DNA from: Planctomycetota bacterium
Lineage (GTDB): Bacteria; Planctomycetota; UBA8108; SXIK01
Length of the DNA stretch: 64,000 bases
Reading direction: 5' to 3'
Assembly: GCA_965223845.1 (NCBI GenBank)
Contig: CBDCXR010000004.1
Coordinates: 5,184,001-5,248,000, forward strand
Below are positions 1 to 30,433 of this stretch, one piece after another. The translations under genes and the position numbers were made by a program. Each line of letters begins with the position of its first letter. Position 1 is the first letter of the stretch. Under the pieces are notes generated by a model. That model was not told the origin of the DNA, ran no database searches, and worked only from the letters and a program-made list of their open reading frames with translations.

Positions 1-732
1 CGCCGTCCGAAGACGACTCTTTCCGTCGGAGAAGACCTTGCTGTGGTACCGCGCGACCTTCTTCTTGAGCGTTGCGGTCAAGTACGACTCATTGATCCGA
101 CTCAGCGACTCGAGCGCCTTCTTGTAGTCCCGATCGTTGATCAGCTTCCGCGCCTTGCTGAGGCGCTCCTCGACCTTCGGCGCGTAGGCTTGCTTCCGCG
201 CCGAAATCGCGCGCGCCACGGCGAGGCCCTTCAGACAGTCACGAGGCTCCGTGCAACGCTGCGTTTTGTAGAGAAGCGTGCCGTCGAGGTCGAGCGCCAA
301 CACGGAAGGCTTCTTCGAGTCGAGCTCGAAGCTCGCGTAGAGCTCGCGGCCGATACCGTGATCGCGGTTGAAGCGAAACGGAACCGCTCCGCCGCGCGCG
401 TACTTCACGAGGCGCGGGGACCGGAAGAGCGTACGCTCGTAGTTCGCCGCGCAACAATCCTTCCCGTCGCTCGGCGACACGAGAAGGACGAGGGCGACCT
501 TACCCTTCTCTTTGCGAGCCGCCTTCGCGATCTCCGAGATGCCCACCGCGTCAGAACGCCAGGCGAGCTGCTCGTTCTCCATGGGTGAGTACGGCGCCTG
601 ACCGCCGATACCACCGCCGCCGCCTCCGCTCCCACCCGGGGAGCCACCGCCGCCGCATCAGCTGCCGGAGAGGCTTTGCGGACTTAGCCAGAGGAAGAGG
701 AAGGACGCGAGGAGAAACCCCGTAACTCTCAT
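1..732 (-). CDS. Partial (runs off left edge) secreted thioredoxin-fold-like protein with an in-frame TGA at 658-660; candidate selenoprotein
   Basis: Manual translation: ATG at 732 with AGAGG upstream, MRVTGFLLASFLFLWLSPQSLSGS-TGA-CGGGGSPGGSGGGGGGIGGQAPYSPMENEQLAW...KGKVALVLLVSPSDGKDCCAANYERTLF...PSVLALDLDG..., open to base 1. Fallback start is ATG at 582. Fold assignment is by pattern only. Confidence 0.7.
628..644 (-). promoter_or_regulatory. Candidate bacterial SECIS hairpin
   Basis: GCUCCC-CGGGU-GGGAGC stem-loop whose G-rich loop lies ~20 nt 3' of the in-frame UGA. Confidence 0.45.
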
Positions 733-886
733 GGCTTGACCTCTTTAGATATGCGGATAGCCCCGGACGGATCCCCCTGCGGACGCGAGCGCCGCGGTCC
801 GGCGGGCGTGTCGCTCCAGAGCGACTCCATCGTTCTACTTCTCCCGCGCCGCCCAAGCAAGAAACGATCGGCGCGAAATGTTCGAT

Positions 887-4016: not shown

Positions 4017-7000
4017 ATGTGCCGCCGCAGCGAAACGACGCAATCCGTCGCGCGATCGCTCTGGATCGCCGCCGCAATCGTCGCCCTCGCCGGCGGAGGC
4101 GCACGACTCGGCGCGCAAGACATTCCCGATGATCCGAACCCGCAGGGGTTCATTCTGACGTCGGGATACAACCTTCTCTTTCCGCTCGGGAATCCGTACG
4201 GATGCGACGGCGGGGGACAGAACAATCTCCTCCGCGCGTGGCTCGCGCCGCGCGCGCCGGAGACGGAAACGGCGCGGCCCGGCGACGAGTGGAATGACAT
4301 CGACTTCGGCGGCGCGGCCGCGGCTACCGGATTCGAGGCGTCCGAGTTCTACGCCGAACTCGGCGAATCGGGCGCGCCCGTTTGGCACAGTCTCTCGTCT
4401 CTGCAGAAGCTCGGTTCCAACCTGCCGCAGACTCCCCCCGCGCTCCCGAACGTCGACGGCGTCGGCTTTCAGCTTCTTCTCAACGAGTTGAACACCAATT
4501 GGGTTTCACAACTTCCCGGCACGCGCCGTCTGCCGACGGACAATGTGGTCGGTGCGGCGCAGACCTTCATCGAAAACAACCGGGAAGGAGTGATCTGCGC
4601 TTCGCTCTGCGTCGCGAGCGACGACTCGATCCAGATTTGGCTGAACGGCGTCCTCGTCCAAAACACGAGCGCGTGCCGCGGACTCGACCAAGGCTGCGCC
4701 GAGATCTCGCCGGTCGAGTTTCTGCCCGGGATGAACCGCCTCACCGTCCTCTGCTGGGAAGGTGTCGGCGATTGGAGCTTTCGGATCGCAGTTCGCGACG
4801 GCCAGGGACAGCTCCTCAGCAACAACAATCAGGACGAGCTCACCTTCCACGGTGCGGAGCCACCGCAGGGAAATATCGGGGGCGCGTTCTCCGTTCGACG
4901 AACGGTTGCGAATCCGGATTGCTGCCCGGCGGGCGAATTCGTTCGCGTCAGTTTGCGCGGAAGCGGACCGCGATCGGGCAACGTCACATTGATCGAAGAG
5001 TACAGCGGCGATCAGCCCGTCGAAGACGTAGCAAACGTGACCGCCGGCGGCGAAGTCATCTCTTTCGGTGAGAACGAAGGGTTCTTCATTCGCTGGACCG
5101 TCCCGGCGTCGACTCTCCGATCGACCGGTGTTCGCTACGATCTCAAGGTCACTCCCGGAGCGGAGGCCATCCCGGTCGGATTTCTCGAGCCGTGCTTCAC
5201 TCGCATCGTCGGTGAACCCATCGTGAAGGGAGCGCTTCCGAATTCGGGCCCGATCGGCATCCTCGACGACTCCCACGCGATCGGTCGCGCCACCGATCTC
5301 GCCGATGGGCTCGGCTCGCTCTCCTTCAGCGCTGGGCGCGACGGTGAGGTCGGCACCCCCGACGATCGGTACACCATGGTCGGGGCGGGCGCGGACATCT
5401 GGAACACCGGCGATTCGTTCCACTTCGGCTACCGCGAGCTCGAGGGCAACTTCCGCGTGCGAGTGCGCATCGCGAGCCGTGGATTTCCGCAATCCGGCGG
5501 CCGCTGGGGACGCTACGGGCTCATGGCCCGGCGCGACTGCGCGCCGAATTCGCAGTACTCCATGGTGCACGCGAATCTCGAAGCGGATCCCGGTCCGAAC
5601 GCCGACCATCCGCAGGGCGATGCTGTCTTCTGGCAGTTCCGCCGCGCCCATCGCACCGACGGCGGCAACGACAACGCTCAGTCGGTGTTCTTTCCCGATC
5701 CCGATGGAAACGGTCCGCTGCAGCTGAACCAGCCGAATTGGTTTCGCCTCGAGCGCCGCGGATCGACGTTTTTCGGCTACGCGTCGTTTGACGGTGACGA
5801 CTGGAAGCTCATCGGCTCGAACACTTGGCCCGACCTTGCAGCGGACGATGCGGTCCTCGTCGGCATCGCGTATTCGAAGCACAGCTCGGCATCGAACGCA
5901 GGGACCGTCGTCTTCTCGAACCTCGAGTACGGCGAGTCCGAGCGGGCGGAGATCTTCGACAACGATCGAAATCGCCCCGGTCGCGTCATCTTTCAAAACA
6001 ACTTCAATAATGTTGCCAACAACACGCTCCCGGCTCAGCTGCAGGGGAACTGCGCATTCAACTGCGACGGTGCCGGAGGCTTTCGTCCGCGAGTCATCAA
6101 CGGGCGCCTTCGCCTCACGCAAGAGGGCGTGGGCGACAATGCGACGAGCGTCTTTCTGCGGACGCCGCTCCCCGCCGACTCGGGGGCGCTCGTCATCGAG
6201 TACACCGCGTTCGCGAGGCACAGCGGGATCACCGGGCAGCCCGTGCTCGGCGATCCAAATCCCGCCGACGGAATGACGATGTCCGTGATCGCGGGGAACG
6301 ATCCCGGCCTCGTCGGCGACGGGGGCGGCGGTCTCGGCTACAACGGCATCGGACGCGGCTTCGATCGCGCTCGGCCGAGCCTATCGGTAGAAGCCGACAC
6401 GTGGGCGGGCGCATTCAACAACGAAGGGACCGGGGCGCCCGAGAACGACGGCACGTGGCATCTCGGCATCAACACCGGCGGGAATCTTCATTCGGTAGCG
6501 ATCAACAAGGATCCTCTCCCCGATCTCTTCGCGCCCGAAGGTGTGCGCCACCGCGTCGTGATCACGTCGGAAGGAAAGGTCTCCGTATTCCTTCTCGGCG
6601 ACGGACGAGCGGGCGGAGTCGACGACGGCGAGCCCGCCGCCGAAGCGACGGTCGAGCCGCTCGGAGCGAGCGGCGAGATGGAGGCGGTCGTCGGGTTTAC
6701 CGGCGCAACGGGCGGAGCGTCGCAGACGTCGGAAATCGACGACGTCACCGTGACCGTGCTCGAGTGCGACGACAATCCCGAGCGAGCCGAGATCGACGGC
6801 CCCGCAGCCGCCGACCCCGGAGACGAGATCCGCCTCGACGCGAGGCGCTCGACCGCGGGCGCGGGCGACGCCGACGAGACTCTCACCTACAACTGGACGG
6901 CAGTTCGAAACGTCACCATCCTCTCCGATCCGACGCTCCCGGAGATCACGGCGCGCGTCGGCGACGGCGAGGTCATCGTGCGCGTCGAGGTCGACGACGG

Positions 7001-8654: not shown

Positions 8655-10436
8655 TCAGAAGATCTCGGGCTCCTTCTCCTCGTCGATGCGGAGCAGGTGG
8701 TCGAGCGAGAACGGCCCGGAGCCGCGCCACACGAGGAGGATCAGGGAGAAGAACACGAGCAGCGTGAACTGGAACCCCAGGTTCGATCCCCAAAGGCTTC
8801 CTTCCGCGCCCGTGACGCTCACGATCACGGCTCCCAGCATGACCACCGCGTTGACTCCCGCGGCAGCTCTCGTCACGAATCCGAGCGCGAGGCTCGCGCC
8901 CCCGATCACGTGAGCGAACACGACCGACCAGGCGATCATCTGCTGCCCGAGGCCGAGACCGTCGCTGAGCGAGGCCTCGAGCTCGGACATGTTCATGATG
9001 TAGTAGACGCCTTTGATCAGGAGCGCGATGCCGAGGTAGATCCGCAAGGCATCCATCGGACGGATGTGGCGGATTCCCGGGACGAGATCGCGGACCGGCT
9101 TGCGGTACCTGCGCTCGACTCGACGCCGCTCGATCGCTCGTTGGAACTCCTCGGAGGCGGCCTTCTCCTGGGCGGGGCTGAAGCGCACGAGAAACGCTGC
9201 GAACGCGCAGAAGGCGACACAGCACCCGAGGATAAGGAATGCGTCCCGATAGGATATGTTCTCGGCTCGGAGGAGGAAGCCGGCACAGACGGCGCCCATG
9301 TTTCCTCCGGCGCCCACGATTCCGGCGACCGCACCGAGCGCCTTCTTGTTGATGAACGGGACGACCGAGTAGGTCGCACCTTCGGACATCTGAACGAAGA
9401 GGCTGAAGACGATCATCGACGGGATCGCCAAGGCGATCACGGTCATCCGGGAGAAGAAAACGAGAGCGACGCCTTCGATGAGGAGAGCGATGAAGAGCCA
9501 CCGGACGCGGCCTCGGAGACCTCCGTTGCGGACGAACCGGTCGCTGATGTAGCCGCCGAGCGTGCGCGCGAAGATGTTCATGAGGCCGAAGAGTCCGGCG
9601 ACCAGCCCGGCGGTCTTGAGGCCGAGTCCGAAGTAGTCCCGGTAGTAGATCGCAGCGACATTGTTGATCGTGAGCTCGATCCCGAAACATGCCGCATAGA
9701 TGACGAAGAGCGCCCACACCCGATAGTCCTTCACCGCGGACCAGAAGGCGCCCTTCGACTTGGCGACGGTCGTCAGCTCACCTTTCTCGCGCAGCTCCTT
9801 AAAGTTCCCGTCCGGCAGATCGGTCGTGACGAACCAGTACGCGATTCCGGTGATGAGGCAGACCGCGCCGGCGACCACCATCGACGCGCGCCAGCTCGCG
9901 GCGTCCGAAAGGCCCATCGTGAGAAAGGCGGCCATGACGAGCGGCATCACCATCTGCGTGACGCCTCCTCCCAGGTTGCCCCAGCCGGCCGAGGTGGCAT
10001 TGGCCGTTCCCACGACGTTCGGAGCGAACATCACCGAAGTGTGATACTGGGTGATGACGAACGAAGCGCCGATGGTCCCGATTCCGAGACGGAACAAGAG
10101 GAACGTGGTGTAGTCCTGCGCGAGGCCGATCCCCATCACCGGCAGCGACCCGAGAACGAGAAGGATCGTGTAGCTCTTCCGCGGACCGATCCGGTCGCAG
10201 AGCCAGCCGATGAAGAGGCGCGCGAAGATCGTGATCGCGACGGAAGCGATGATCGTGTTTCCGATCTGCTGTTTCGTGAGCGACAGCTCCTCTCGCACGA
10301 CCGCCATCAAAGGGGCGATGCCGAACCACGCGAAGAAGCAGAGGAAGAAGGAGAACCACGTCATGTGGAACGCCCGCATCTGACGCGTCTTCAGCGTGAA
10401 GAGATCGATGCTCGTTGCCTTGTTCCGAACTTCCAC
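8655..10436 (-). CDS. narK: NNP-family nitrate transporter (NarK1/NRT2-like) fused to a C-terminal DoxX domain
   Basis: GWGNLGGG nitrate signature, 12-TM MFS; tail LRIYLG...HVIGGASLALGFVTR...GSGPFSLD. Start moved to GTG 10436 (GGAG RBS, downstream of the sigma54-like promoter). Confidence 0.9.
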   Translation of the reverse strand: MEVRNKATSIDLFTLKTRQMRAFHMTWFSFFLCFFAWFGIAPLMAVVREELSLTKQQIGNTIIASVAITIFARLFIGWLCDRIGPRKSYTILLVLGSLPVMGIGLAQDYTTFLLFRLGIGTIGASFVITQYHTSVMFAPNVVGTANATSAGWGNLGGGVTQMVMPLVMAAFLTMGLSDAASWRASMVVAGAVCLITGIAYWFVTTDLPDGNFKELREKGELTTVAKSKGAFWSAVKDYRVWALFVIYAACFGIELTINNVAAIYYRDYFGLGLKTAGLVAGLFGLMNIFARTLGGYISDRFVRNGGLRGRVRWLFIALLIEGVALVFFSRMTVIALAIPSMIVFSLFVQMSEGATYSVVPFINKKALGAVAGIVGAGGNMGAVCAGFLLRAENISYRDAFLILGCCVAFCAFAAFLVRFSPAQEKAASEEFQRAIERRRVERRYRKPVRDLVPGIRHIRPMDALRIYLGIALLIKGVYYIMNMSELEASLSDGLGLGQQMIAWSVVFAHVIGGASLALGFVTRAAAGVNAVVMLGAVIVSVTGAEGSLWGSNLGFQFTLLVFFSLILLVWRGSGPFSLDHLLRIDEEKEPEIF

Positions 10437-10495
10437 GGTTGGTTCTCCGGGCGGTAAACCGGTTCTCTGTGCACGCACTCCGTCATCCGCCGACA

Positions 10496-10511
10496 AGAAA
10501 ACTCCGTGCCA
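10496..10511 (-). promoter_or_regulatory. sigma54-like -24/-12 promoter of narK1-doxX
   Basis: TGGCACG-GAGT-TTTCT; perfect -24, -12 has T in place of the consensus G. Confidence 0.65.
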
Positions 10512-10667
10512 TCCGACAGACGGAGCTTCTCGCGAAACACAAGCCGCCGAACGATAGCGACTTACCGTGAAGTCCGGCCCGCATCTCGCACCGTGTTCAC
10601 GTGCGGGTGTGTGTACTTACGAAGGCTGTGACTCGACGCCCAAACGTACAACTACGTCTGACGCGGC

Positions 10668-10697
10668 GAGTTGCGTGCGCATACGGCCGTATGCGCA
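10668..10697. promoter_or_regulatory. Putative enhancer (UAS) for the sigma54 activator
   Basis: GAGTTGCGTGCGCATACGGCCGTATGC, 24/27 identical to 28542-28568; includes the perfect 22-bp palindrome TGCGCATACGGCCGTATGCGCA (10676-10697). Confidence 0.7.
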
Positions 10698-10788
10698 GCC
10701 GGATGCTAAGTGCGACACCCATGCAGCATTCGCCGGGCATTCGGCGACGAATACGCGCCGTCCTCGGATCCCCGCGTCGAGCCGTCTC

Positions 10789-11697
10789 TCAGACTTGGAG
10801 AAGACGGGCGAGATTCTCGGCGAAGATGAGTTGCTTGACCGAATCATCGACACCGAGCTGGTCGAGGGCCGCGTCCTGCGCCTCGAAGAGATCGCGTCGC
10901 CACCCGCGCGGAAACGTGGATGAGTCCGTGCCGAAGAGGATGCGCTCCGAACCGAACACTCCGAGCGCCCGCTCGAAAACATCGCGGAGCTGTGTCGGCG
11001 TCGGCTGGGCGGACATCCACGAGTTCGAGCTCGACGTGTCGACGTACACGTTGGGGCTCTGAGCACCGGCGAGGAGCGCCTCGCTCAGGAACCCGCCCCC
11101 GAAGTGGGGAAGGACGAACGTCACGCCCGGATGGCGCTCCGCCGCCGCCGACACGGCGAGCGGTGTCGCGCAGCGAATATCGTAGGTCGGACGGACGCCG
11201 AGAAGATCTCGAAGCTTGATCGCGAGAACGCCACAGTGGACGACGATCGGTGCGCGGCTCGCTTTCGCCTGCTCGTAGAGCGGATCGAGAGCTTCCGAGC
11301 TCGGATCGAAGTACCCAATCGCCGGGAAGAGAAGTACGCCGCGGCCGCCGCGGCGGAGCCCTTCGGCCGCGGCTTCGACGCCGCCGGGCTGCGACGGATC
11401 GCACGCGAGATACGGGATCAAGCGGTTCCCGCTCGACGCGCAGGCCTCGAGCACGGTGGGCCCTTCCGGGGGCACGCTCGCGAAGCTCACGGCACAGTTG
11501 ACGCTGTTCCCGTCGAGCTCGCGGATCCAACGTTTCGTGTGATCGGACGTGACCTGAGAAGGGAGCTCGATGCCGGTCTTTTCGACGATCTGAGCGAGTA
11601 GCTCACTCGCTTCACTCTCGGACTTCGATGCGGCCTGGCTCGCCAAGGTGCTAAAGAAGCCGTACGAGAAGAAATGGGTGTGAGCGTCGCAGATCAT
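10789..11697 (-). CDS. Amidohydrolase_2 family metal-dependent hydrolase
   Basis: DAHTH, VVHCG, LPHFGGG, YVDTS, ILFGTD motifs. Confidence 0.9.
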   Translation of the reverse strand: MICDAHTHFFSYGFFSTLASQAASKSESEASELLAQIVEKTGIELPSQVTSDHTKRWIRELDGNSVNCAVSFASVPPEGPTVLEACASSGNRLIPYLACDPSQPGGVEAAAEGLRRGGRGVLLFPAIGYFDPSSEALDPLYEQAKASRAPIVVHCGVLAIKLRDLLGVRPTYDIRCATPLAVSAAAERHPGVTFVLPHFGGGFLSEALLAGAQSPNVYVDTSSSNSWMSAQPTPTQLRDVFERALGVFGSERILFGTDSSTFPRGWRRDLFEAQDAALDQLGVDDSVKQLIFAENLARLLQV

Positions 11698-11721
11698 GAT
11701 CCACCGCCGAGTCCGATGTTT

Positions 11722-12924
11722 CTACTGGTGGTGTTCGAGGCTCTCCGTCAAGCGGGGATCCGTCGTCGGGATGATAGGTGCTCGACCGAGGTTTCGGAAG
11801 AACACCAAAGCAAAGAGCGACAGGACACCGAGCACCGGGAAGATCTCCCACACGCCGAGCGGTGGCCCTTCCCGGTGAAACGGAGGCTCGATCATCAGAT
11901 AGAGATCGAGCCAGCGCCCCACGATCAACAGCCCGCTGATCGTGAGCAGTGTGTTGGCGCTCCGCTTGGCGCTCCGAGGAAGAAGGACTAGGAACGGAAT
12001 CAACCAGTTGACGACCAGGTTGAGGACGAAGAGGACCCCCCACGTTCCCTTCTGTCGCGCGATGAAGTGAGACGTCTCCTCCGGGATGTTCGCATACCAG
12101 ATCAGCATGTACTGGCAGAACCAGATGTACGCCCAGAACGTGCTGAAGCTGATCAACAGCTTTCCTAAATCGTGGAGGTGATCCTCGCGAACCAATCCAC
12201 CGAGCGGGCCGAGTCGCGTCAGGATGATCACCGTGAAGGTGACCACGGCGAGACCACCGACGAAGAGCCCGGAAAAGTTGTAGAGGGCGAACGCCGTGCT
12301 GAACCAATGGGGCTCGAGCGACATGATCCAGTCGAAGCAGATCACGGAGAACGTAATCGCAAAGACGGCGAGAAAAATTCCCGAAGCTCCAACGGGGCGA
12401 TCGTGGGCATCGCTCGCTCCCGCCGACTCTTTTCGTCTCGGGGCCACGACGAGGAAGTAGGAGAAGACGAGCCAGCAGGCCGCACAGATCACGGTGCGGA
12501 CGATGAAGAAGAGCGGATCGAGCCAAGCGCTCTTGCCCTCGAGGATCGGGTCGGCGGCGACGACCTCGGCGTGACTCCATTCGTAGAGAATCGGGATCAG
12601 CGAGAGGACCGCGACCGAGAGAAGGACGGCCAAAGGCAGCGTCATCGCCATCGCTTCGGGCACCCGGCGGAGCACGACGCTCCACGAGGCCGAAGTGACG
12701 TTCTGAAACGCGACGAAGAGGAGGCCCGCCAATCCGAGCCCCAGGACGTAGAACACGCCGACGAGGATGTTCGCTCCCATCCTCTCCGGCGCGACGAAGA
12801 GACCGATGATCGCAGCGGCCACGCCGACGATCGCGAGAGTCGTCAGCGCGCGGCTCCAGACCTCGGGCAGCTTGGCGATAGGCGTCGAGCGCGAGACGCT
12901 TCGGTGTGCGGTTTCGGTGGTCAT
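11722..12924 (-). CDS. actF: Alternative complex III subunit F (NrfD-like membrane protein)
   Basis: WSVVLRRVPE, DWIMSLEPHWFST, HLHDLGK, FWAYIWFCQYMLIWYANIPEET. Confidence 0.9.
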   Translation of the reverse strand: MTTETAHRSVSRSTPIAKLPEVWSRALTTLAIVGVAAAIIGLFVAPERMGANILVGVFYVLGLGLAGLLFVAFQNVTSASWSVVLRRVPEAMAMTLPLAVLLSVAVLSLIPILYEWSHAEVVAADPILEGKSAWLDPLFFIVRTVICAACWLVFSYFLVVAPRRKESAGASDAHDRPVGASGIFLAVFAITFSVICFDWIMSLEPHWFSTAFALYNFSGLFVGGLAVVTFTVIILTRLGPLGGLVREDHLHDLGKLLISFSTFWAYIWFCQYMLIWYANIPEETSHFIARQKGTWGVLFVLNLVVNWLIPFLVLLPRSAKRSANTLLTISGLLIVGRWLDLYLMIEPPFHREGPPLGVWEIFPVLGVLSLFALVFFRNLGRAPIIPTTDPRLTESLEHHQ

Positions 12925-13508
12925 CGTGAGGAGTCTTCCGGCGCCGCCTGTTGCAGCGAGCGCACGTACAAGATCACTTTCCAGCGATCACTTCGCTCGA
13001 CCTGCGAGGCGTAAGAAGCCATGTTGCCCTGCCCGAGAGTCAGAACGTGGTACATCTGCCCGTCCTTCATCTCGCGTGCTCTCTCGGCGAGCAGCGAGGG
13101 CGGCGGGGGAACGCCGCGCTTCGTCATCGGGCCCTGCCCGCTTCCATTGGCCGCGTGACACATCTCGCAGAACGTCCGGTAGACGAAAGCTCCCCGCTCG
13201 ACCGCTCGGGCGTCTTCTGCGCTCTCGGGATTCCGCAGCTCCTCGCCTGCCCGGAGGGCTTCTTCCGGCGTCGGCGAGTAACGGAATGCCGGATACCCCA
13301 CGGCAGCCGACCCCGGCGGCGGAAGCAGGCCGCTCCCATCTCCCGTGACCGGAGTCGATCCCTGCGAGTCGTAGGGAACGGAATCGTGCATGTCCGCGAG
13401 GATCTGAAAACTGCGCTGGCTGCGGTCGGGGATCACGGCGAAGTGGAGAAGAACGACCAGCACGATCGCCGCGACGAGTAGCTTGCCTCCGAGTCCAAGA
13501 CTGCTCAC
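12921..13508 (-). CDS. actE: Alternative complex III subunit E, monoheme cytochrome c
   Basis: GTG start overlapping the actD stop; DMHDSV, CEMCH, DGQMYHV..G.GNM.SY, DRWKVILYVRSLQ. Confidence 0.88.
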   Translation of the reverse strand: MSSLGLGGKLLVAAIVLVVLLHFAVIPDRSQRSFQILADMHDSVPYDSQGSTPVTGDGSGLLPPPGSAAVGYPAFRYSPTPEEALRAGEELRNPESAEDARAVERGAFVYRTFCEMCHAANGSGQGPMTKRGVPPPPSLLAERAREMKDGQMYHVLTLGQGNMASYASQVERSDRWKVILYVRSLQQAAPEDSSR

Positions 13509-14044
13509 CGCGTCACCTCCTCGTAGCCAGTCACGACCTCGACGGCGCCGAACTCCTCGAGCAGTCGGTTCACCGTGTCCGGATTCTGCGACGCATCCGC
13601 CAAGCGAAGCACGATGGCGAAACGGTCGTCCGTCACCCGCGGATGCACGAGCTGCGCGCGCCTCCCCGGTAGGAGTCGGCGATGGAAGAGCAGGGCGAAG
13701 ATCACTCCGTAGCCGCCGCACAGGACGACCATCTCGAAAACGATCGGAATGACCGCCGGGAGCGAGTTGAACGGTTTGCCGCCGATATTCGTCGGCCAAT
13801 CGACGGCCAGCGTCCAGGTAGCAAGCCAGAGCATGCCTGCGCCCCCGAGGAGTCCACAGATGAAGCAGACCCACGGCAGCCAGGAGCGCCTGAGCCCCAT
13901 CGCTTCGTCGAGGCCGTGCACGGCGTAAGGCGAGTACACATCTACGATCTGAAGGCCGAGACGGCGCGACTCGCGAGTGACCCCGAGGATCGATTCTTCG
14001 TTGTCGAAGATTCCGGTCCATTGCCGGACGCCGAGCACGCTCAT
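13505..14044 (-). CDS. actD: Alternative complex III subunit D (DUF3341)
   Basis: [38 protein letters not shown]. Confidence 0.92.
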
Positions 14045-15405
14045 TCGTCACCTCCCTTCTCGGACTTGCCGACGTGGAGGACACCCTTGACCTCGGCGAT
14101 GGCGATCATCGGGAGGAAACGGCAAAAAAGGAGAAAGCACGTGAAAAAGAGCCCGAAGCTCCCGAGCAGCGTAGCGAGCTCGATGGACGTCGGAGCGTAG
14201 CTCGACCAACTCGACGGCAGAAAGTCTCGGTGGAGCGAAGTGACGATGATCACGAAGCGTTCGAACCACATGCCGAGGTTGACGAGGATCGTGATCGCGA
14301 ACACGAGGGCGATGTTCGCTCGCACCCGCTTGAACCAGAGAAGCTGCGGTACGATGACGTTGCAAGCCACCATGATCCAGTACGACCAACCCATCGGCCC
14401 CGCGGCGCGATTGAAGAAGGCGAACTGTTCGTACTCGTTCCCGGAATACCACGCGGTGAAGAACTCGGTGCCGTAGGCGAGTCCGACCATCAAGCCGGTG
14501 GCGAGCACGAGCTTGCACATGGCATCGATATGCCGAGTCGTGATGTACTGCTCGAAGCGCATGACCCGGCGCGCGATGATCATCAAGGTGAGAACCATCG
14601 ACATACCGCTGAAGATCGCTCCGGCTACGAAGTAGGGCGGAAGGATCGTGGTATGCCAGCCCGGTATGACCGAGGTGGCGAAGTCGAAGCTGACGATCGT
14701 GTGCACCGACAGAACGAGCGGCGTCGCGAGACCGGCCAAGAGGAGGTAGACGATCTCGTAGTGCGACCAAGTCCTCTGCGACCCGTTCCAGCCCAGGCTG
14801 AAGAACGCCAAGATGGCGCGGCGCACCTTGGACGTCGCGCGATCCCGCAGTGTTGCCAAGTCGGGAACGAGTCCTAGCAGCCAGAAGCCGAGCGAGATGA
14901 GGAAGTAGGTGCTGATCGCGAAAACATCCCAGAGGAGAGCCGAGCGAAAGTTCACCCACAGTGGCCCTCGAGTATTCGGGTAAGGGAGAACCCAGTAGGC
15001 TAGCCAAGGCCGACCCATGTGAATGAGAGGAAAGATGCCGGCGCACATCACGGCGAAGATCGTCATCGCTTCCGCCGAACGGTTCACGGCGGTGCGCCAG
15101 CGCTGACGGAAGAGGAAGAGGATCGCCGAGATCAGAGTGCCGGCGTGGCCGATACCGATCCAAAAGACGAAGTTGGTGATGTCGAAGGCCCAGCCGACGG
15201 TCCGGTTGAGGCCCCAGGTCCCGATGCCCAAAACCGTCTGATAGGTGACGGCTGCGATGCCGAGGATCATGACCGCGAACGAGACGAAGAACGCGATGTA
15301 CCATGCGCGCGTCGGTCTCCGCTCGAGCGGCGAGCATACGTCCCTCGTCACTTGCCCGAGGCTCTTGCCTCCGTCGACGAGCGGAGGAATGACCCGGCTA
15401 GCCAT
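14041..15405 (-). CDS. actC: Alternative complex III subunit C (NrfD/PsrC quinol-binding subunit)
   Basis: [55 protein letters not shown]; start at MASRVIPP. Confidence 0.95.
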
Positions 15406-18400
15406 GACGCGCCTCCCCTTCCTCGCGCCCGCCCTCGTGCCCACCTTCGTAATTGCGCACCTTTCTCAGATAGCCCACCGAGGGGAGGACGTTCAGCTCC
15501 TCGAGGACGTGGTAGTGGCGGGGATCGCCTCGCTGCCTCGCGATCGCGCTCTCACGGTCGTTGCGGTCGCCGAACACGATGGCCTGAGCGGGGCATGACT
15601 GGACGCAGGCGGGTTGAATTTCTCCGTCGCGCACCGAGCGGCCTTCGCGCTTCGCTTCGATCTTTGCCTCCTGGATGCGCTGAACGCAGAAACTGCACTT
15701 CTCCATGATCCCGCGCGAGCGCACCGTCACATCCGGGTTGAGAACCATGTTCTCGAGCTGGTCGTCGCGGGGGTAGTCGAACCAGTTGAAGCGGCGTGTC
15801 TTGTAGGGACAGTTGTTCGCGCAGTAACGCGTGCCGACGCAGCGGTTGTAGACCTGCTGATTGAGCCCCTCGTCGCTGTGGACCGTGGCCAGCACTGGGC
15901 ACACGTTCTCGCAGGGAGCGTTGTCGCAGTGTTGACACATCATCGGTTGGTGCGCGACCCGGACATCGTCCCCCTCTCCGCTGTAGTAGCGGTCGATGCG
16001 AATCCAGCTCATCTCGCGATTGCGCGCGACCTCGTCCTTGCCCACGACGGGGATGTTGTTCTCGGCTTGGCAGCCGATGACGCATCCGCTGCACCCGGTA
16101 CAACGCGAGAGGTCGACGGCCATCGCCCAGTGATGTCCGTCGTAGGAATGATCCTCGGGCCACATCGACTTCAGCTCGTGAGTGGGATGTCCACCGGCGT
16201 GCGGGTCCTTCTGATACTTCGCGAGCGTCGTCTCTTGGACAATGGGACGCGGATGCGCGTGACCCGCGGTGAGATGCTTCGGCACCTCGAGTGAGTGGTA
16301 CTCTTGCGTGCGAGCCAGCGTGCGAGTCTCGTTGGTCCTCGCAACCTCGACGACCGTTCCACCGTAGCGCAGCCCGCCGCCCGCAAAGGAGAGCAGCGGT
16401 GCCGCGTTCACGCCGACCGTCTCACCCGCCTCGACGGTGGGTCGGGCCTCGATCCACTGGGGGCCGACGTTCAGGAAGCGGTCGGTTCCCGTGCGGCCGT
16501 AGCCGAGCGCGACAGCGATCGTCGCAGCGTGTTGACCCGGCTGGACCAGAGCCGGGAGCTCGATCGTCACCGAGGCGCCGTCGGCCGACGATCGCGTCAG
16601 GCGCAGGACATCTCCGGTCTCGACGCCGAGATCTGCGGCGTACGCAGGTGCGATGGCGGCGTAGTTGTCCCAGGCGACCTTGCTGATCGGATCGGGCAGT
16701 TCCTGCAGCCACGCGTTATGCGCGTGGCTGCCATCGCGCAGCCCGATCTTCTCGTAGAGCAGCACTTCGACTCCGCTCGCGACACCGGTCGCAGGCGCAG
16801 CGATCGTCGGCTCTCGATACTCCGTCGGCGCCGTCGACGCAGGAGCGACCTCGACGAATCCGCGCTGGAGCGTGTCATCCCAAAGTCGGTCGAGCGACCG
16901 GTCCGAGTCCGGAAGCTCGGATCGCGGCAGTATGGCGCTTCGCCAGTGGTCTCGCAGTATGTCGAGGTGGCTTCGTGCCCCGCCGCTCCAAGCGGCCAGG
17001 CTTTCGACGACGGAACGCGTCTTTCCGAAGGGCCTCACCACGGGCTGCGTCACCGTGACGACGCCGGCCACAGGCTCTGAGTCGCCCCAACTTTCGAGGA
17101 AGTGGTGATCCGGACAGACGAAGTGTGCCTGCGCCGCGGTTTCATCCACGCGTTCCGCGAAACTGACGATCACGGAGGCCTTTCCGAGTGCGCTGCTCAG
17201 CTCGGTGCTCGTCGGGAGATCGTAGGCAGGGTTGACCCCGTGGACGAAGACGGTTCCGACCTTTCCTTCACGCAGCTCCGAGAGGAGATCGATCAGATCC
17301 CGATCGTTTCCGCGCCGCTGGAACGACGGGCGTTGAAGATCGATCGCCTCCGAGCCCGAGCCGACGTTCTTCAGAAGGTTGTTGGTCCACGCCGTGACGC
17401 GCTGCGCCTCGAGGTCGTTCGCACCGCAGACGATGAGAGTTCGTCCTCTCGGTGCGCTCCACAGGCGCGCGGCGAGCCGCTCGACGACGCCGGGGTCGAG
17501 AGGGCCGCCCGCAGGCTGCGCCCAGGGCGGAGTGGCGCCGGCCTCGGCGGCTACCGCCGCCGCGAGCTGCGCGATCGCCGCGTGAAGCTGGGAGGGACGC
17601 ACGGTCCAGCGGTCGTCGGCGTTGCTTCCGGTCACCGAAAGACCGGACTCGATCTGGGCGTGGTACGCCACGCGCGAGTTGGCGCCGTCGAGCTTGCGTC
17701 CCTCGAAGTACGAAGCGGTGAACTCGACCGGCGAGATCCAGGCGCCGAGAAAATCCGCCTCGAACCCCACGATCACCTCGGCGCGATCGAAGCGAAGGCG
17801 GGGAAGGACTCGGACCCCGTAGGCTTCCTCTTGGGCGTCGAGGAGCGCGGACGCGGATACCGGGTCGTACTCGACGAGCTTTCCATCGGGGAACGTCGAC
17901 AGGAACGCTTCGATGCTCGCGCGAAGCGTCGGGCTCGTGATGCTTCGCGACAGAAACCGCACCGCGCCTCCTCCTGCGCGAACGCGATCGAGCTCGGCGC
18001 GAAGCGCGGGATCGAGCTCCGCCCAGTCCTTCGCTGCGCCGCGGAGGAGCGGCCCCTTCAGGCGCTTCGAGTCGTAGAGCCCGAGCAGGCTCGCCTGTCC
18101 GACCGCGCACAGCCCGCCCTTCGACACCGGCTGCTCGAGACCCTCGAGCTTGATCGGTCGGCCGTCGCGGTTCTTCGTGAGGACGCCACAGCTCGCCGTG
18201 CAAGCCCCGCAGGTCGACGCGTACCACGTCGCTCTTCCCGGCGTGATCTCCTCCGGCTTGACGAGGTAGGGGATGAGCTTTTCCTCGCGCCCGCGGGTGC
18301 AACCGGTGAGGGCCGTTCCGCCGAGGGAGAATCCGGCGAGCTTCAGAAAGGATCGACGATCGACGCCTTCCCGCTCGCCGCTCTCCGGCTCGCGTCCTCC

Positions 18401-18427
18401 ACTATCGATCGATTCTCCGGGCCTCAT
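15398..18427 (-). CDS. actB: Alternative complex III subunit B (TAT-exported molybdopterin-fold plus Fe-S domain)
   Basis: RRSFLK...LTGC TAT lipoprotein signal; DGRPIKLEG; [11 protein letters not shown]; [41 protein letters not shown]...CVQSCP. Confidence 0.95.
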
Positions 18428-18442
18428 GGCTTTCTCTGCGTT

Positions 18443-19093
18443 TCAGTAGTGGCATGCCGAACAATCTGTCGAGGCGTCCACGTGTCCCTGCGCGGGGTCC
18501 TCGCTCTCGTGACGGTGGCAGTTCACACACCAGCCCATCGACAGAGTCTCCACTTGATGCATTCGCTCCATCGTCTCGACGGCACCGTGACAGCGGCGGC
18601 AGTCGATGCCGGCGGCGACATGGGGCCGGTGGTCGAAATAGACGTAGTCCGGAACGCGGTGCACCCGAACCCACTCGATCGGGCGCGTCGTCCGGGCGGG
18701 GTCCGGCTTCAGGTTCTCGTCGAGGCCGAATGCGTCGTACAGCTTTCGAAGCTCGGGAGAGACGACCAGACGCGCCTTGCGGCCCTCGGTCTCGGCGAGC
18801 TTCTCTTCCGCGCGGACATCGATCATCGGGGCCGTGACGAAGTTGTGGCAGTTCATGCACACGTCGGCTGACGGAATGCCGGCGTGCCGGCTCTTCTCGG
18901 CCCCCGAGTGGCAATAGAGGCAGGGGACGCCGAGCTCGCCCGCGTGGAGTCGGTGAGAGTAGGCGATCGGCTGCTCCGGTGAGTATCCCTGGTCGTTCCC
19001 CGGCAGGTGGACGGTGCCGAGAAGACTCACCAGCGAAATCGTGCTGTAGAGGAGTGCCAGAACCAGAAGAATGGTCAGTGTCCGACCGTGCAT
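18443..19093 (-). CDS. actA: Alternative complex III subunit A, pentaheme cytochrome c
   Basis: N-terminal TM, GYSPEQPIAYSH, five CxxCH (CLYCH, CMNCH, CRRCH, CVNCH, CSACH). Confidence 0.93.
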   Translation of the reverse strand: MHGRTLTILLVLALLYSTISLVSLLGTVHLPGNDQGYSPEQPIAYSHRLHAGELGVPCLYCHSGAEKSRHAGIPSADVCMNCHNFVTAPMIDVRAEEKLAETEGRKARLVVSPELRKLYDAFGLDENLKPDPARTTRPIEWVRVHRVPDYVYFDHRPHVAAGIDCRRCHGAVETMERMHQVETLSMGWCVNCHRHESEDPAQGHVDASTDCSACHY

Positions 19094-19106
19094 CGACGTC
19101 TTTCCT

Positions 19107-20723
19107 TCAGCACGAGATCTCTGCGTTCTTCCGGGCGTAGAACCACCAGTTCACTGCCAGGCAAGAGAGGTAGTAGCCCGCGAATCCGTAGAGCGCGTAC
19201 TGGGGTGTCCCCGCTTTGATCTGAGTCGCGAAGATTTTGGGGATCAGATAGGCACCGTAGGCCGCGATCGCGGAGGTCCACCCGAGCACGGGGCCGCGCT
19301 GGTCCTTGTCGAAAATCACGCCGATCATGCGGAACGTCGATCCGTTGCCGATTCCCGTGGTGGCGAAGAGCACGATGAACGTGAGCAGGAACGGAATGAA
19401 GTACTGCTGCGGCCGGTCGGACTCCATCGCGAGGGCACAGAAGTATCCCGCCGCGATGGTCGCAACGATCATGACGATCGTGTCCCAATGGGTGACCCGC
19501 GCGCCGCCGAGCTTGTCGGATAACCAACCTCCCAAGGGGCGGATCAGCGCGCCGACCCCCGCTCCGATGTAGATGTATCCCGCGCTCGAGAGGCCGGTGA
19601 GCTGGCCTGCATTCTCGCCGACGCGGTACTGGCCGAAGACGTCATCGATGAGCTTCGGGAAGGCATTCGCGTAGCCGATGAACGAACCGAACGTCATGAC
19701 GTAGAGCCACGTCATGATCCAGTTGTGCTTGTGCTTGAAGATTGCGAACTGCCCCTGGAGATTCGACTGCGTCTCCTTCGGCGTTAGGTAGCGCATCGCG
19801 AGCAGTGTGACCGCGACCGCGACGACGACGACGAGGAAGGTCTTCAAGAGAACCGGGAAGCCTCCCCACGGTAGGATGAGAAGGGCGATTCCAGAGACCG
19901 CCCCGAGGTAACCCAGCGCGGTCAACCACAGGAATTTCGCGCAGGCGATGGGAGTCGGACCACACTTGTGGAACGGCAAGTTGTCCATAAAGAAGAACGC
20001 GAGCACGAGGCAGGTGACGAGAATCGGCACCCAGACGAGTCCAGCGTTCTGGATCCACAGGTTGCTCGTCGCTCCCCCCTCAACCGTCACGTAGGGGTCG
20101 CCGCCGAGCTCGCCGAACAGCCCGAAGGTGATCACCCATGGAATGAGGAACTGCATGACGCTGACCCCGAGGTTGCCGAGGCCGGCGTTGAGTCCGAGCG
20201 CGAGCCCCTGCATCCGCTTCGGGTAGAAGAAGCTGATGTTGGACATCGACGAGGCGAATGCGCCGCCGCCCACTCCGGAGAGACCGGCGAGGATGATGAA
20301 GATATAGAAAGGCGTCTCGTGGTTCTGCAGCGCGAAACCAGCTCCGATTGCGGGCAGGATTAAGAGCAGCGTCGTCATGAACTTAACGTTCCGGCCGCCG
20401 CAGATCGCGATCATGAACGAGTTCGGGATCCTGAGTGTCGCACCCGCCAGACCGGCCACTGCGGGGAGCGTGAACAGGAGAGCCCGGTAGCCGTCGTTGT
20501 CGAACGGCTGCCCATCGTTCATGAAGGTGAAGTTGAAGAGATCTCCTTCGGAGGCGAAGTGGAGCTTCTGAATGTACTTGGCCACCATGCCCCAGTAGAT
20601 CCAGACGGAGAATCCCAGCAGGAGGTTGGGGATCGAGATCCACAGGTTCCGTTTGGCTACGGACTTACCCGTGCTCTCCCAAAACTGTTCGTTCTCAGGA
20701 TCCCAATGCTCGATGCGCGCCAT
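19107..20723 (-). CDS. narK: Nitrate/nitrite antiporter, NarK2-type
   Basis: WDPENEQFWE...RNLWISIP, FASSMSNISFFYP, AGLGNLG, YVMTFGSFIG, TGIGNGSTFRMI. Confidence 0.93.
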   Translation of the reverse strand: MARIEHWDPENEQFWESTGKSVAKRNLWISIPNLLLGFSVWIYWGMVAKYIQKLHFASEGDLFNFTFMNDGQPFDNDGYRALLFTLPAVAGLAGATLRIPNSFMIAICGGRNVKFMTTLLLILPAIGAGFALQNHETPFYIFIILAGLSGVGGGAFASSMSNISFFYPKRMQGLALGLNAGLGNLGVSVMQFLIPWVITFGLFGELGGDPYVTVEGGATSNLWIQNAGLVWVPILVTCLVLAFFFMDNLPFHKCGPTPIACAKFLWLTALGYLGAVSGIALLILPWGGFPVLLKTFLVVVVAVAVTLLAMRYLTPKETQSNLQGQFAIFKHKHNWIMTWLYVMTFGSFIGYANAFPKLIDDVFGQYRVGENAGQLTGLSSAGYIYIGAGVGALIRPLGGWLSDKLGGARVTHWDTIVMIVATIAAGYFCALAMESDRPQQYFIPFLLTFIVLFATTGIGNGSTFRMIGVIFDKDQRGPVLGWTSAIAAYGAYLIPKIFATQIKAGTPQYALYGFAGYYLSCLAVNWWFYARKNAEISC

Positions 20724-20935
20724 CGCGGGCTCCTCTATTCGACGGGCCGCGTGACGGACCGTCGCGACTGATCAGCTTCGCGGTCTCGATGAATGCCGAG
20801 AAGCATGGATATCCGGGCTTCCGCCGGGAGGGAGATACGGGACCGTTCACGCAGCGGTGTAGCCTTCCGGCCGCTGCCCAACACTGCGCTCCCCGCCGGA
20901 GACGCGAAGTCCCCGAATACGTTTGGGTGGTCGAG

Positions 20936-21697
20936 TCAGGAATCGGTCTTCCACGCCGCACTTCGGTTCGCCTCACTTTGCCGGATCTTCGTGCGATCCC
21001 AGTTCCAACGAACGACCTGCGCGCGCCTCCAGAGATACATGTTCGGAATGACGAGAATGTGAACGAGTCGCGTGAAGGGAAAGACTGCGATCAACAGGAA
21101 CGCGCACACGATGTGGATCTTTACCCACGGAGGCATCGACTCGACGTAGGAGATGTCCGGGCTCAGCTGCACGAGCGACCAGAGGTACGGACTCAGAGCG
21201 GCCGCAAACCAGGAAGAGCCCCAACCGACGAATACCGCGACGTAGATCCCGCTGAAAATCTGCAGAAGGAGGAGTCCGTACACGACCCAGTCGGCCTTGG
21301 TCGTCACGATCCGCAGTTTCGGATTCGTCCACTTCCGCACGATGATATTGATCAAGCCCACGAACGTGAGCAGGCCGAAGATGAGCGCGGCGATCTCGAG
21401 GATGTAGAGCCGCAGTGGCTCTTGGTTCCAAAGAAGCACTTGTCGCGGAATCAGGAACGCGATGACGTGCCCGAGGAGGATGACGAGGATTCCGTAGTGA
21501 AACGGAACCATGCCCCAGAAGTGGTGGCGATTCTCGAGGAACTGCGACGACAAGCTGGAGTAAGTAAACGACTGCATTCGGTAGCGCTGAATCGTCATGA
21601 GTATGAATATGACGAACGCCACATACGGCAGTACGGCGAACAAGACTTGGTCGAGATAGTGCAGTCCCTTTAGATCGAGGAAGGCTAGCCAGTTCAT
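20936..21697 (-). CDS. narI: Respiratory nitrate reductase gamma subunit (diheme b)
   Basis: SSLSSQFLE, FHYGIL...GH, KIH...FPFTRLVH: all four heme His present; ATG overlaps the narJ stop. Confidence 0.95.
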   Translation of the reverse strand: MNWLAFLDLKGLHYLDQVLFAVLPYVAFVIFILMTIQRYRMQSFTYSSLSSQFLENRHHFWGMVPFHYGILVILLGHVIAFLIPRQVLLWNQEPLRLYILEIAALIFGLLTFVGLINIIVRKWTNPKLRIVTTKADWVVYGLLLLQIFSGIYVAVFVGWGSSWFAAALSPYLWSLVQLSPDISYVESMPPWVKIHIVCAFLLIAVFPFTRLVHILVIPNMYLWRRAQVVRWNWDRTKIRQSEANRSAAWKTDS

Positions 21698-22317
21698 GCC
21701 GTGCCTCCGCATTGGCTCTGGCATCCGGGAGGCAGCACGTCCAACTCCCGGAAGTACGGTAATGCTTCCTTTCCTGCCGTCAGCTCCTCCTCGATGGAGA
21801 ACAGCTCACGGGCGACACGTTCCACCGCTTCGAAGACGCACGCGTAGGGACGGTCCTCGGGCATCTGCTTCTGCATCTTCGCGAGAGCCGGAAGCAGGTA
21901 GTCTCGGCAGAGTTGGCGAGCCTCCTCCTCGGCGAGGCGTCCGATGACCTGAAGCACGTGGCTGAGGTGGTCCGGAAGCTCGGCGGTTTCCGCCAGGCCG
22001 AGAGCTCGCATGTGACCTCGCATCTCCACCAGGAACGCGCCTCTGGTGTAGTTCTCGCCGTAGAGGTGCCAGCCGATCTCGAGTGCGCAGTCCGGGGAGA
22101 TGTCGAAGGTCCGCGTGTACGCCTCCTCGAGCGCGAACGGCTCGAGGGTATCGACGTGCTCGCGCAGCGGCCCGAGGGTCGTCTCGAGTCCCGCACACCA
22201 GCTCTCGAGATACGCGATCGCCTCTCGCACCCGTGCGGCGTAGTTCGCATTCGGGTAGGCGAGGAGCGACGCGAGGTCGTCGAACAGCGCGATTCGGTGT
22301 TCGGTGGTCAGAGTCAT
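21694..22317 (-). CDS. narJ: Nitrate reductase molybdenum cofactor assembly chaperone (delta)
   Basis: LLAYP, EEAYTRTFD, GENYTRG, ELPDHL. Confidence 0.92.
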   Translation of the reverse strand: MTLTTEHRIALFDDLASLLAYPNANYAARVREAIAYLESWCAGLETTLGPLREHVDTLEPFALEEAYTRTFDISPDCALEIGWHLYGENYTRGAFLVEMRGHMRALGLAETAELPDHLSHVLQVIGRLAEEEARQLCRDYLLPALAKMQKQMPEDRPYACVFEAVERVARELFSIEEELTAGKEALPYFRELDVLPPGCQSQCGGTA

Positions 22318-23807
22318 CAGAGACCTCGCTTCGGACCGGACACGAAGCCGAATCCGGCGCTCTGCCGGTGTTCGTGGGGATCCTTCATCATTTCCATGGC
22401 TTCCTCCCGGTGCGCCGGCGGGATCACGAAACGATCGTCGAAGGTGCAGAGAGAGGTGAGCTTGTAGATCGCATCGGCCTCTTCCGCCGAACAGTCCGCC
22501 AGTTGCAGAGCACGGGAGGCAGCCTCCTGATCCAAATCACCGACAGTCAGGGAGCGCCGGAAGGCTCGGACGGCCATCTGCTTGCGAAGGGCGTACGTGA
22601 CCTTGCCGATATTGCCGCCGCCGAAGAGATTGCCGAGAAAGGCCAGCGGCACGCGGGCTTCCTCGATCTCGTGGAAGAATTCGTCCGACACGCTGCCGAC
22701 CGTCTTGTCGCCTCGCTTCGACATCACGGGAAGAAGCGGAGGTACGTAGAAGAGCATCGGCAGGGTTCGGTATTCGATGTGCGGCGGAAGCGCGATCTTC
22801 CAGACCTTGACGAACTGGTAGACCGGCGAGTGTTGCGCCGACTCGATGACCGAGTCGTGAATGCCGTTTTGCCGCGCGGCCCGAATTACGGCCGGGTCGT
22901 GCGGATCGAGGATCATGTCCCGCTGCGCCTCGACGAGCTCGTCGTTCGGCATCTTCGCGATCTCTTCGATGCGATCGGCATCGTAGAGAAGTACGCCGAG
23001 GTATCGGATGCGCCCGACGCACGAGTGGAAGCAGGCTGGTGCCTGTCCGGTCTCGAGTCGAGGGAAGCAGAGGATGCATTTCTCCGACTTCCCCGTGAAC
23101 CAGTTGTAGTAGGTCTTCTTGTAGGGACAGGCGGCAACGCACGAGCGCCAGGCGCGACAGACCTTCTGGTCGATGAGCACGATGCCGTCCTCACCTCGCT
23201 TGTAGAGCGCACCCGAGGGGCACGACGCCACGCAAGATGGGTTCAGGCAGTGGTTGCAGATGCGGGGGAAGTAGAAGAAGACCAGCCGCTCGATGGCGAA
23301 GAGCTGCGCTCTTTCCTCGGGCGTCAAGGATTCGAGGTTGGGATCGTTCTCTGCGTAGACCGGAGAGCCACCGAGATCGTCGTCCCAGTTGGGCCCGGCC
23401 TCGATGTTCATGTACTCGCCGGTGATCTGCGAGATCGGCCGAGCCGTCGGCTGATCGTCTCCCTCCGGCGCGTTAAAGAGATCCTCGTACTTGTACGTCC
23501 AGGGCTCGTAGTACTCGTCGAGGCTCGGCTGCGAAGGATTGTGAAAAATATTGGGGACGACGCGCTTGCGGCTCGTCGAGCGCAGGCGAAGGCGGTCGCC
23601 GTCGGATTCCCAGCCGCCGCGGTACTTCTCCTGACTTTCCCACTGCGTCGGGAAACCCGTGCCCGGCTTCGTCTCGACGTTGTTCCACCACATGTACTCC
23701 GTGCCCTTTCGGTCGGTCCACACGTTCTTACAGGCGATGCTGCAGGTGTGGCACCCGATGCACTTGTCGAGGTGAAAGACCATCGATACTTGCGAGCGAA
23801 CGTCCAT
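22317..23807 (-). CDS. narH: Respiratory nitrate reductase beta subunit
   Basis: LDKCIGCHTCSIACK, WNNVETKPG, CNHCLNPSCVASCPSGA, CRAWRSCVAACPY, EKCILC. Confidence 0.98.
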   Translation of the reverse strand: MDVRSQVSMVFHLDKCIGCHTCSIACKNVWTDRKGTEYMWWNNVETKPGTGFPTQWESQEKYRGGWESDGDRLRLRSTSRKRVVPNIFHNPSQPSLDEYYEPWTYKYEDLFNAPEGDDQPTARPISQITGEYMNIEAGPNWDDDLGGSPVYAENDPNLESLTPEERAQLFAIERLVFFYFPRICNHCLNPSCVASCPSGALYKRGEDGIVLIDQKVCRAWRSCVAACPYKKTYYNWFTGKSEKCILCFPRLETGQAPACFHSCVGRIRYLGVLLYDADRIEEIAKMPNDELVEAQRDMILDPHDPAVIRAARQNGIHDSVIESAQHSPVYQFVKVWKIALPPHIEYRTLPMLFYVPPLLPVMSKRGDKTVGSVSDEFFHEIEEARVPLAFLGNLFGGGNIGKVTYALRKQMAVRAFRRSLTVGDLDQEAASRALQLADCSAEEADAIYKLTSLCTFDDRFVIPPAHREEAMEMMKDPHEHRQSAGFGFVSGPKRGL

Positions 23808-23823
23808 GCGGAACTTCCCTTCC

Positions 23824-28334: not shown

Positions 28335-28369
28335 CGAACTCTCCTACTCAGGGTTCGACGGGCGCTCAT

Positions 28370-30290: not shown

Positions 30291-30433
30291 CGAGGTTTTC
30301 TCGTATGAGTCAATTCCACGTCGCCTCCTTCCGCGATCGTTGGTCAGGTCCGTCTTGCCGTGAAATAGATTTTTGGTGTCAGCCGATTGATCGACAGTCG
30401 GTCGAGGCTTACAACCGAACGAGGCGCAATGCG

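Follow-up and report, generated by a model that had tools for sequence, protein, structure and literature searches.

The window, as we call the whole 64-kb stretch of planctomycete DNA analysed here, carries at its edge, on the minus strand, a gene that very probably encodes an exported selenoprotein of a Planctomycetota family that has apparently not been described before. Judged from this gene and its relatives, an in-frame UGA at codon 25, just behind a signal peptide, is with high probability a site of selenocysteine (Sec, U) insertion. As the earlier note on this DNA had expected, the public version of the gene is called from an internal methionine (Met 582) and misses both the signal peptide and the UGA (P0002, 243 residues). 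Read through the UGA, the precursor has 293 residues, of which 244 lie inside the window and about 49 beyond its edge, as reckoned from the length of P0002 (Table 1).

The ribosome-binding site and the ATG at 732, which the earlier note had proposed with the strand left unstated, are real: a Shine-Dalgarno-like hexamer precedes this start codon, and its duplex with a short anti-Shine-Dalgarno motif is worth -6.5 kcal/mol, as compared with -2.5 kcal/mol at ATG 582. The 24 codons from ATG 732 to the TGA encode MRVTGFLLASFLFLWLSPQSLSGS, with a basic start and a hydrophobic core (maximal KD8 of 2.72; 2.3-3.5 in 11 homologs). This segment is signal-like, as claimed before, but the signal peptide more probably measures 23 than 24 residues. 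Ser24 is the likely mature N-terminus, and the mature protein would start with X-U-C, because the homologs read LxG|Q-U. The TGA-TGC dyad follows in frame, the Gly-rich linker behind it counts 18 residues (14 of them Gly) instead of the previously estimated 17 or so, and the reading frame then stays open up to the edge of the window. In the 11 genes that could be matched from the domain start, 26-49 codons separate the TGA from the folded domain. The protein is basic, with a pI of 10.1 (family median 9.5).

Table 1. Features of the gene and its surroundings, in window coordinates.
Feature	Position	Strand	Basis
Shine-Dalgarno-like AGAGGT	739..744	-	6 nt before ATG 732
Signal peptide, about residues 1-23 (LSG| cleavage predicted), plus Ser24	661..732	-	basic N-terminal end, hydrophobic core
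In-frame UGA, codon 25, predicted selenocysteine	658..660	-	TGA in 11/11 homologous loci, exchanging with TGC/TGT
Cys26, which completes the U-C dyad	655..657	-	C in 6, U in 3, G in 3 of 12 genes
18-residue tether, flexible and rich in Gly	601..654	-	equivalent region of L001 at pLDDT <50
Candidate bacterial SECIS, GCTCCC-CGGGT-GGGAGC	628..644	-	inside the Gly linker; loop 19 nt after the UGA
Conserved Q-x-PY-x-P-x-EN-xx-L-x-W motif, opens the folded domain and holds Met51 (ATG 582)	559..600	-	alignments A2 and A5
Thioredoxin-fold domain (DsbD-gamma / DsbH / Thioredoxin_7 type)	187..573	-	AF2 pLDDT 96
Domain motifs: D-C93-C94-AANYER (456-451), KKP loop, Q-x-C160 (255-253), C166	within 187..573	-	conserved cysteines
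Start of a basic TPR-like helical domain	1..186	-	DSSP helices, weak TPR matches, length of P0002

Within positions 1-1100 of the window, neither a sigma-70-like promoter nor a terminator was found. The next gene upstream on the same strand (887-2071, 154 nt from ATG 732) encodes a phosphodiesterase/sulfatase-type domain and a C-terminal repeat, which we take to be dockerin-like. Elsewhere in the window, a minus-strand respiratory cluster (8655-28343) holds a molybdopterin oxidoreductase and a nitrate reductase beta subunit, together with genes that we read as nitrate-type MFS transporters and alternative-complex-III-like genes. A frame at 29285-29926, just before the stretch of lowest GC content (56.5% at 30001-32000), reads as an integrase- or transposase-like gene. 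An RtcB-family RNA ligase is found at 50344-51852.

Searches for related proteins, together with a complete scan of 1.84 billion representatives, yielded 46 family proteins, including P0002, and a later search added none; we discarded two further candidates, P0032 and P0038, which are spurious repeat proteins. The sole name attached to these database homologs is 'hypothetical protein, Planctomycetes bacterium'. No top-scoring stretch in the protein search begins before query residue 27, and a signal-like N-terminus is present in only two of the 46 database proteins, P0040 and P0044, in both of which the CC motif and third cysteine of the domain are absent. P0044 is a divergent homolog with a signal peptide, a Q-D-C start and three further cysteines in short repeated C-P motifs.

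At the genome level, a single-protein query retrieved no locus (0 of 190 stretches), and the wide alignment A2 proved too variable for the scan, whereas the narrower alignment A3 succeeded. With the pattern [DSN]CCA[AQM]N[FY]ER, 19 stretches of GTDB genomes were matched and 12 were confirmed as family loci, at 26-45% identity; the pattern demands the CC, so that these loci are intact members and a biased sample of the family. By title, ten belong to Planctomycetota, one to Proteobacteria and one to an uncultured organism. One locus (L006) is cut by a contig end, which leaves 11 loci with upstream DNA, from 10 genomes. In each of these 11, the first in-frame stop met on going upstream is a TGA that directly follows a signal peptide, 22-29 codons past a start preceded by a Shine-Dalgarno-like sequence, and the frame is open on both sides of it, as it is in the window; G|Q or A|Q precedes the dyad in nine of them.

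The dyad itself is variable. It reads UC in the window, L005, L007, L010, L011 and L012, UU in L004 and L008, and CU in L009; L001 and L003 have U-G-A-G-G-C (UxxxxC) instead, and L002 has a lone U and no arm cysteine. With U in 11 and C in one of the 12 genes at its first position, and C, U or G at its second, TGA therefore swaps with TGC or TGT at both positions. The earlier note had named Gly, Trp or Arg at this codon as signs of a nonsense mutation or a sequencing error; none of them ever occupies the first dyad position, which is a TGA or Cys codon in 11/11 loci. In a tree of 52 rows, each of the three main clades has UGA loci, and no all-Cys full-length ortholog was found among the family homologs. 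L002 and L004, sister rows in this tree, are two paralogs in one genome, with a lone U and UU, respectively.

We rejected several other accounts of the N-terminal region. A global reassignment of UGA is at odds with the 80 of 150 called open reading frames that end in TGA, among them the family genes of L001 and L011. Lipoproteins carry the lipobox [LVI][ASTVI][GAS]C at the signal peptidase II site; on inspection by eye, none of the 12 genes shows such an L/V/I box with the U or C at its end, and Gln precedes the dyad in nine of the 12. A Gln at the N-terminus after cleavage resembles the Q-rule of Bacteroidetes (PMC5837995).

The earlier note had also pointed to a hairpin with a G-rich loop about 20 nt past the UGA as a bacterial SECIS element. 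This hairpin is present at that place, but taken alone it does not rise above chance, and it is the weakest in the family. It has a z-score of -0.25 to -1.24 against dinucleotide shuffles and p=0.13 against synonymous shuffles, and a covariance model from which the window had been left out (R2) did not list it at E<=10; the leave-one-out model likewise misses the L011 hairpin. The match of another model (R1) was discarded, because the window was part of its training set. With -9.6 kcal/mol, the window hairpin lies within the constraints for bacterial SECIS elements that appear in the accessible text of PMC13188914, i.e. a loop of 3-9 nt with a G in its first two bases, placed 16-37 nt after the UGA, and a stability of -7.5 kcal/mol or below. 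Applied by our own script to contiguous stems, a procedure distinct from bSECISearch, these constraints are satisfied by 14/14 family TGAs as against 10 of 150 ordinary stops; the terminal TGAs of the L001 and L011 genes fail them.

When codons were resampled under a fixed peptide, the hairpin was significant at p<0.05 in 10 of 12 genes, with a combined Fisher p of 1.4e-10 that is overstated, as the genes are related. In an alignment of 10 hairpins, for which we centred the stretches on their loops and the stronger of two hairpins was taken for L005, 92.5% of the cells pair, both sides change in five of the seven stem pairs, and the covariation score was reached by none of 500 shuffles. The usual loop form is C-GGN-G, so that Ser/Pro-Gly-Gly codons spell out the stem-loop and the tether serves at the same time as SECIS. 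In the two genes with a tandem TGA-TGA at the mature N-terminus (L004, 4572-4577; L008, 3180-3185), a single hairpin lies within reach of both UGAs, at distances of 27/24 and 19/16 nt. No further candidate for a UGA with a hairpin was found in the 64-kb window.

Neither selA, selB nor selD was found in the window or in the flanks of the 12 loci (Pfam, applied to 61 of 114 flank open reading frames), and Rfam at its gathering score detected ordinary tRNAs only, with no tRNA-Sec, in the window and the 12 loci. Full sets of Sec genes are reported for four other planctomycetes in the accessible text of PMC4807772. The L002 genome has TGA at textbook CxxC sites of further proteins with thioredoxin, DsbD-like and HMA domains, each followed by a hairpin with a G in its loop. 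One of them, on the plus strand (TGA at 161, frame to 736), combines a Thioredoxin_7 domain carrying W-U-G-P-C with a helical C-terminal domain as in the family, and is likely an unannotated selenoprotein and a distant paralog. Another, on the minus strand (TGA at 13979), is a DsbD-like thioredoxin domain with T-U-A-N-C, with a strong hairpin (loop GCAT) 25 nt downstream. The third, at 4659-4991 on the minus strand and divergent from the family gene, is a membrane-anchored HMA-domain protein with G-L-H-U-S-M-W-U (two TGAs), which scores below the cut-off of the known models for metal-binding selenoproteins. These three extra candidates in a single 16-kb flank suggest that further selenoproteins lie hidden in these genomes.

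The thioredoxin-like domain that the earlier note had recognised downstream of the linker is borne out by structure prediction as well as by structural and profile comparisons. The AF2 model of P0002, based on 37 sequences, shows a thioredoxin fold followed by long helical hairpins. Its top structural matches are DsbD-gamma, DsbH, 2lst, 2kuc and YbbN; VIA-align gives Z 14.0 for 2lst (rmsd 5.1, 127 aligned) and Z 13.8 for 3f9u (rmsd 2.2, 121 aligned), and the profile match to 2kuc has an E-value of 2.8e-6. In a model of full-length L001, residues 17-44, which comprise the dyad and the tether, are predicted to be disordered. The vicinal cysteines of GKDCCAA, which had been equated with the CxxC site of thioredoxin folds, are present as C93 and C94 of the precursor and lie where the active-site loop meets the start of the helix, but their register relative to a CxxC is ambiguous: HHalign places C93 opposite the second cysteine of U-G-P-C, with a two-residue gap, whereas counting back from the conserved Phe without gaps assigns the pair to the two middle positions of the CxxC site. 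The active-site helix does not open with a CxxC or UxxC; the motif there is D-C-C-A-A-N-Y-E-R. Among the proteins that cover the respective site, 39 of 43 retain the CC and 39 of 42 the third cysteine, in Q-x-C. This third cysteine, C160, presumably lies near the CC, judging from general knowledge of the fold. The proline of the KKP loop, a candidate for the cis-proline position, is conserved to at least 90%. The canonical U-G-P-C protein of L002 aligns with the family over 202 columns (probability 74.6). As it shares the entire layout of thioredoxin domain and helices, we suggest that the family may descend from a standard exported oxidoreductase.

Taken together, these features lead us to a mechanistic proposal. 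Translation would begin at ATG 732, and SelB, bound to the hairpin within the Gly-linker codons, would recode UGA 25 as selenocysteine. Cleavage of the signal peptide after Gly23 would then expose X-Sec-Cys at the N-terminus of the mature, periplasmic protein. There, a disordered, Gly-rich tether would link the dyad to the thioredoxin fold, which lacks a CxxC; its Cys93-Cys94 are placed at the active-site helix, presumably with Cys160 next to this pair, and TPR-like helices come behind it. The selenolate of the arm might attack either oxidants or substrate disulfides, the resulting selenylsulfide or diselenide could be resolved by the domain cysteines, and the helical domain would hold the client. 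In the absence of selenium, the only product would be a peptide of 24 residues, and expression would therefore depend on selenium.

An envelope oxidoreductase or redox chaperone whose swinging Sec arm works against Cys93, Cys94 and Cys160 is, on balance, the probable function. We favour it because the fold and the nearest relatives are those of disulfide oxidoreductases, because the arm and the domain cysteines were lost together in two arm-less homologs, and because the arm variants match both types of thioredoxin reductase arm that are given in the accessible part of PMC6272602, i.e. mammalian GCUG and Plasmodium GCGGGKCG. The comparison of the Sec-Cys arm with a mirror image of the C-terminal arm of animal thioredoxin reductase, drawn in the earlier note, gains support from these variants and still has the standing of an analogy. 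Since L002 has a lone U and no arm cysteine, the essential partner of Sec would be a cysteine of the domain or of the substrate, and a ring within the arm would not be required. Neither Pfam nor fold searches found an FAD or NADPH domain. Across the loci, we found no conserved partner gene or operon. Six loci (L004, L005, L006, L007, L009 and L010) have downstream neighbours that recur within one clade, each at 3-5 loci: a putative aminopeptidase (PF10023), an ECF sigma factor with a zf-HC2 anti-sigma factor, and a tRNA-Leu(TAA). An operon-based assignment of function was rejected, as these neighbours are missing on the readable side of the window.

The main rival to a redox function is a role of the arm as a ligand for soft metals or metalloids, in which U-C would close over C93-C94/C160 and bind periplasmic Cu, Hg, Ag or As, with the protein serving as chaperone or scavenger. 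The loss of the CxxC alongside the retention of three cysteines would fit such a site, as would the free exchange of U and C within the dyad, and the accessible text of bioRxiv 10.1101/2022.07.06.499078 treats CU/CC dyads as marks of proteins linked to heavy metals, such as SaoB/C/L and the N-terminal extension of HgcA. Furthermore, the HMA-domain gene with its U-xxx-U adjoins L002. Yet this neighbour occurs at just one of 12 loci, a P-type ATPase is found near L011 only, and no metal-transport neighbour is conserved; the nearest folds are disulfide oxidoreductases, and the lone-U and UxxxxC forms would alter the geometry of the ligand, so that we consider metal binding rather unlikely. Less probable still is a catalytically inactive thioredoxin domain, in which C93, C94 and C160 form structural disulfides in a holdase of the YbbN/CnoX kind and the arm acts as an oxidation sensor or as a covalent link to clients. 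CnoX is a cytoplasmic chaperedoxin that is not known to have a canonical CxxC or a Sec arm. Like the family, the CnoX/YbbN proteins combine a thioredoxin domain with helical repeats, and YbbN (3qou) and its Salmonella relative 3qdn are among the top Foldseek matches (E 2e-4 to 3e-4), yet the whole-chain fit is poor (TM 0.31-0.35, rmsd about 16). In distinction from these proteins, all 12 family genes have a signal-like segment, and the joint absence of UGA arm and domain cysteines in two homologs (n=2) suggests that the two are coupled.

Two further explanations concern the reading of the UGA itself. It is very unlikely that the UGA is a true stop, either in a damaged gene or behind a short peptide that precedes a cytoplasmic protein starting at Met 582. 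The weakness of the window hairpin would agree with this, and a MEN start at the equivalent position is found in eight of the 46 database homologs, all from the wider clade of the window; the remaining starts are scattered, so that Met 582 is not the consistent start that the earlier note had listed as a point against a selenoprotein. Moreover, the TGA is retained, in exchange with Cys codons, in 11/11 loci at the low identities given above, L001, the locus nearest to the window, carries a Phe where the window has Met 582, and ATG 582 lacks a good Shine-Dalgarno sequence. An ATG that overlaps the TGA lies in another frame and is missing in L001 and L003; translational coupling through TGATG was accordingly rejected. 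A second, internal start may also be used. Finally, a selC*-type tRNA-Cys(UCA) could read the UGA as cysteine, either always or under selenium scarcity, which we regard as highly improbable. Such tRNAs are known to suppress UGA, and the sequence pattern would be the same for Cys and Sec. However, the accessible text of PMC5389517 names Firmicutes, Thermodesulfobacteria, Nitrospirae and Proteobacteria as groups with selC*, makes no mention of Planctomycetes, and describes the co-occurrence of selC* with a full Sec system, and several planctomycetes are among the organisms reported to have such a system (PMC4807772, likewise in its accessible part).

The closest known counterparts of the family each share some of its features. 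Bacterial selenoproteins with a thioredoxin fold, such as UxxC thioredoxin, NF041199, TsoB (NF045694) and the DsbD-gamma/DsbH group, belong to the same fold subgroup, likewise have a UGA with a G-loop hairpin, and show weak HMM similarity to the family. By contrast, the family has its predicted Sec on a disordered N-terminal arm outside the active site, and has a vicinal CC and a third cysteine in place of a CxxC. The best NCBIfam E-values are 0.0024 (Trx7/PDZ, NF041199) and 0.00022 (TsoB, NF045694), each reached by single members out of 14, with all scores well short of the cut-offs; the window protein matches neither at E<=0.1. The CU extension of HgcA, as described together with the CU/CC proteins of the SAO system by Haft and Gwadz in the accessible text, comes nearest to being a precedent for this annotation error (bioRxiv 10.1101/2022.07.06.499078): there, too, an N-terminal Cys/Sec dyad was missed because annotation starts past the UGA, and SaoB and SaoC are exported. 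The family differs from them, as far as that text describes them, in that it lacks the PCUGP motif, a corrinoid or ABC domain and a conserved operon, and in that its order is mostly U-C. The terminal arm of high-Mr thioredoxin reductase, within the accessible part of its description, is flexible too and carries either a vicinal dyad or two residues with four others between them. The likeness is one of analogy only: in the family, the arm is at the opposite terminus, there are no FAD/NADPH domains and no homology, and the protein is exported. Lastly, the algal PDI_e (GUGUU), a thioredoxin-fold protein with two consecutive Sec, is described as the first such case in the accessible part of PMC7539508. 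This eukaryotic protein relies on a SECIS in the 3'UTR, whereas the UU pair of the family is bacterial, lies at the mature N-terminus and has an in-frame hairpin 16-27 nt from both UGAs.

We found no earlier account of the family or of a bacterial UU in the literature searched, which consisted largely of journals free of subscription. No Pfam or NCBIfam model (June 2026) reaches its cut-off for the family, a search of PDB sequences returned no family above the cut-off, and plasmids gave no match. Within its accessible text, the catalogue of 119 families in PMC13188914 lists neither this architecture nor a UU motif, and Planctomycetes and signal peptides are not mentioned there. Likewise, Planctomycetes go unmentioned in the main texts, as accessible, of BSepDB (PMC13326102) and deep-Sep (PMC12013277), whose supplements and online database may list members under other names. 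The families of Haft and Tolstoy (2025) were compared through a review table and the NCBIfam models.

More tentatively, and with somewhat less conviction than for the redox function, we propose that this is a selenium-obligate family of exported thioredoxin-TPR proteins that has no all-Cys ortholog, in which the catalytic chalcogen has moved from the CxxC onto an N-terminal arm, and some members of which would form a vicinal diselenide through a tandem UGA-UGA served by one SECIS. If true, its selenium-obligate arm would be a bacterial, periplasmic counterpart of the thioredoxin reductase arm. The series of U, UC, CU, UU and UxxxxC on one scaffold allows a direct test of Sec versus Cys, and the UU members allow testing whether bacterial SelB decodes two adjacent UGAs from a single hairpin. 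Beyond the family itself, these proteins point to redox or metal chemistry in the planctomycete envelope that depends on selenium.
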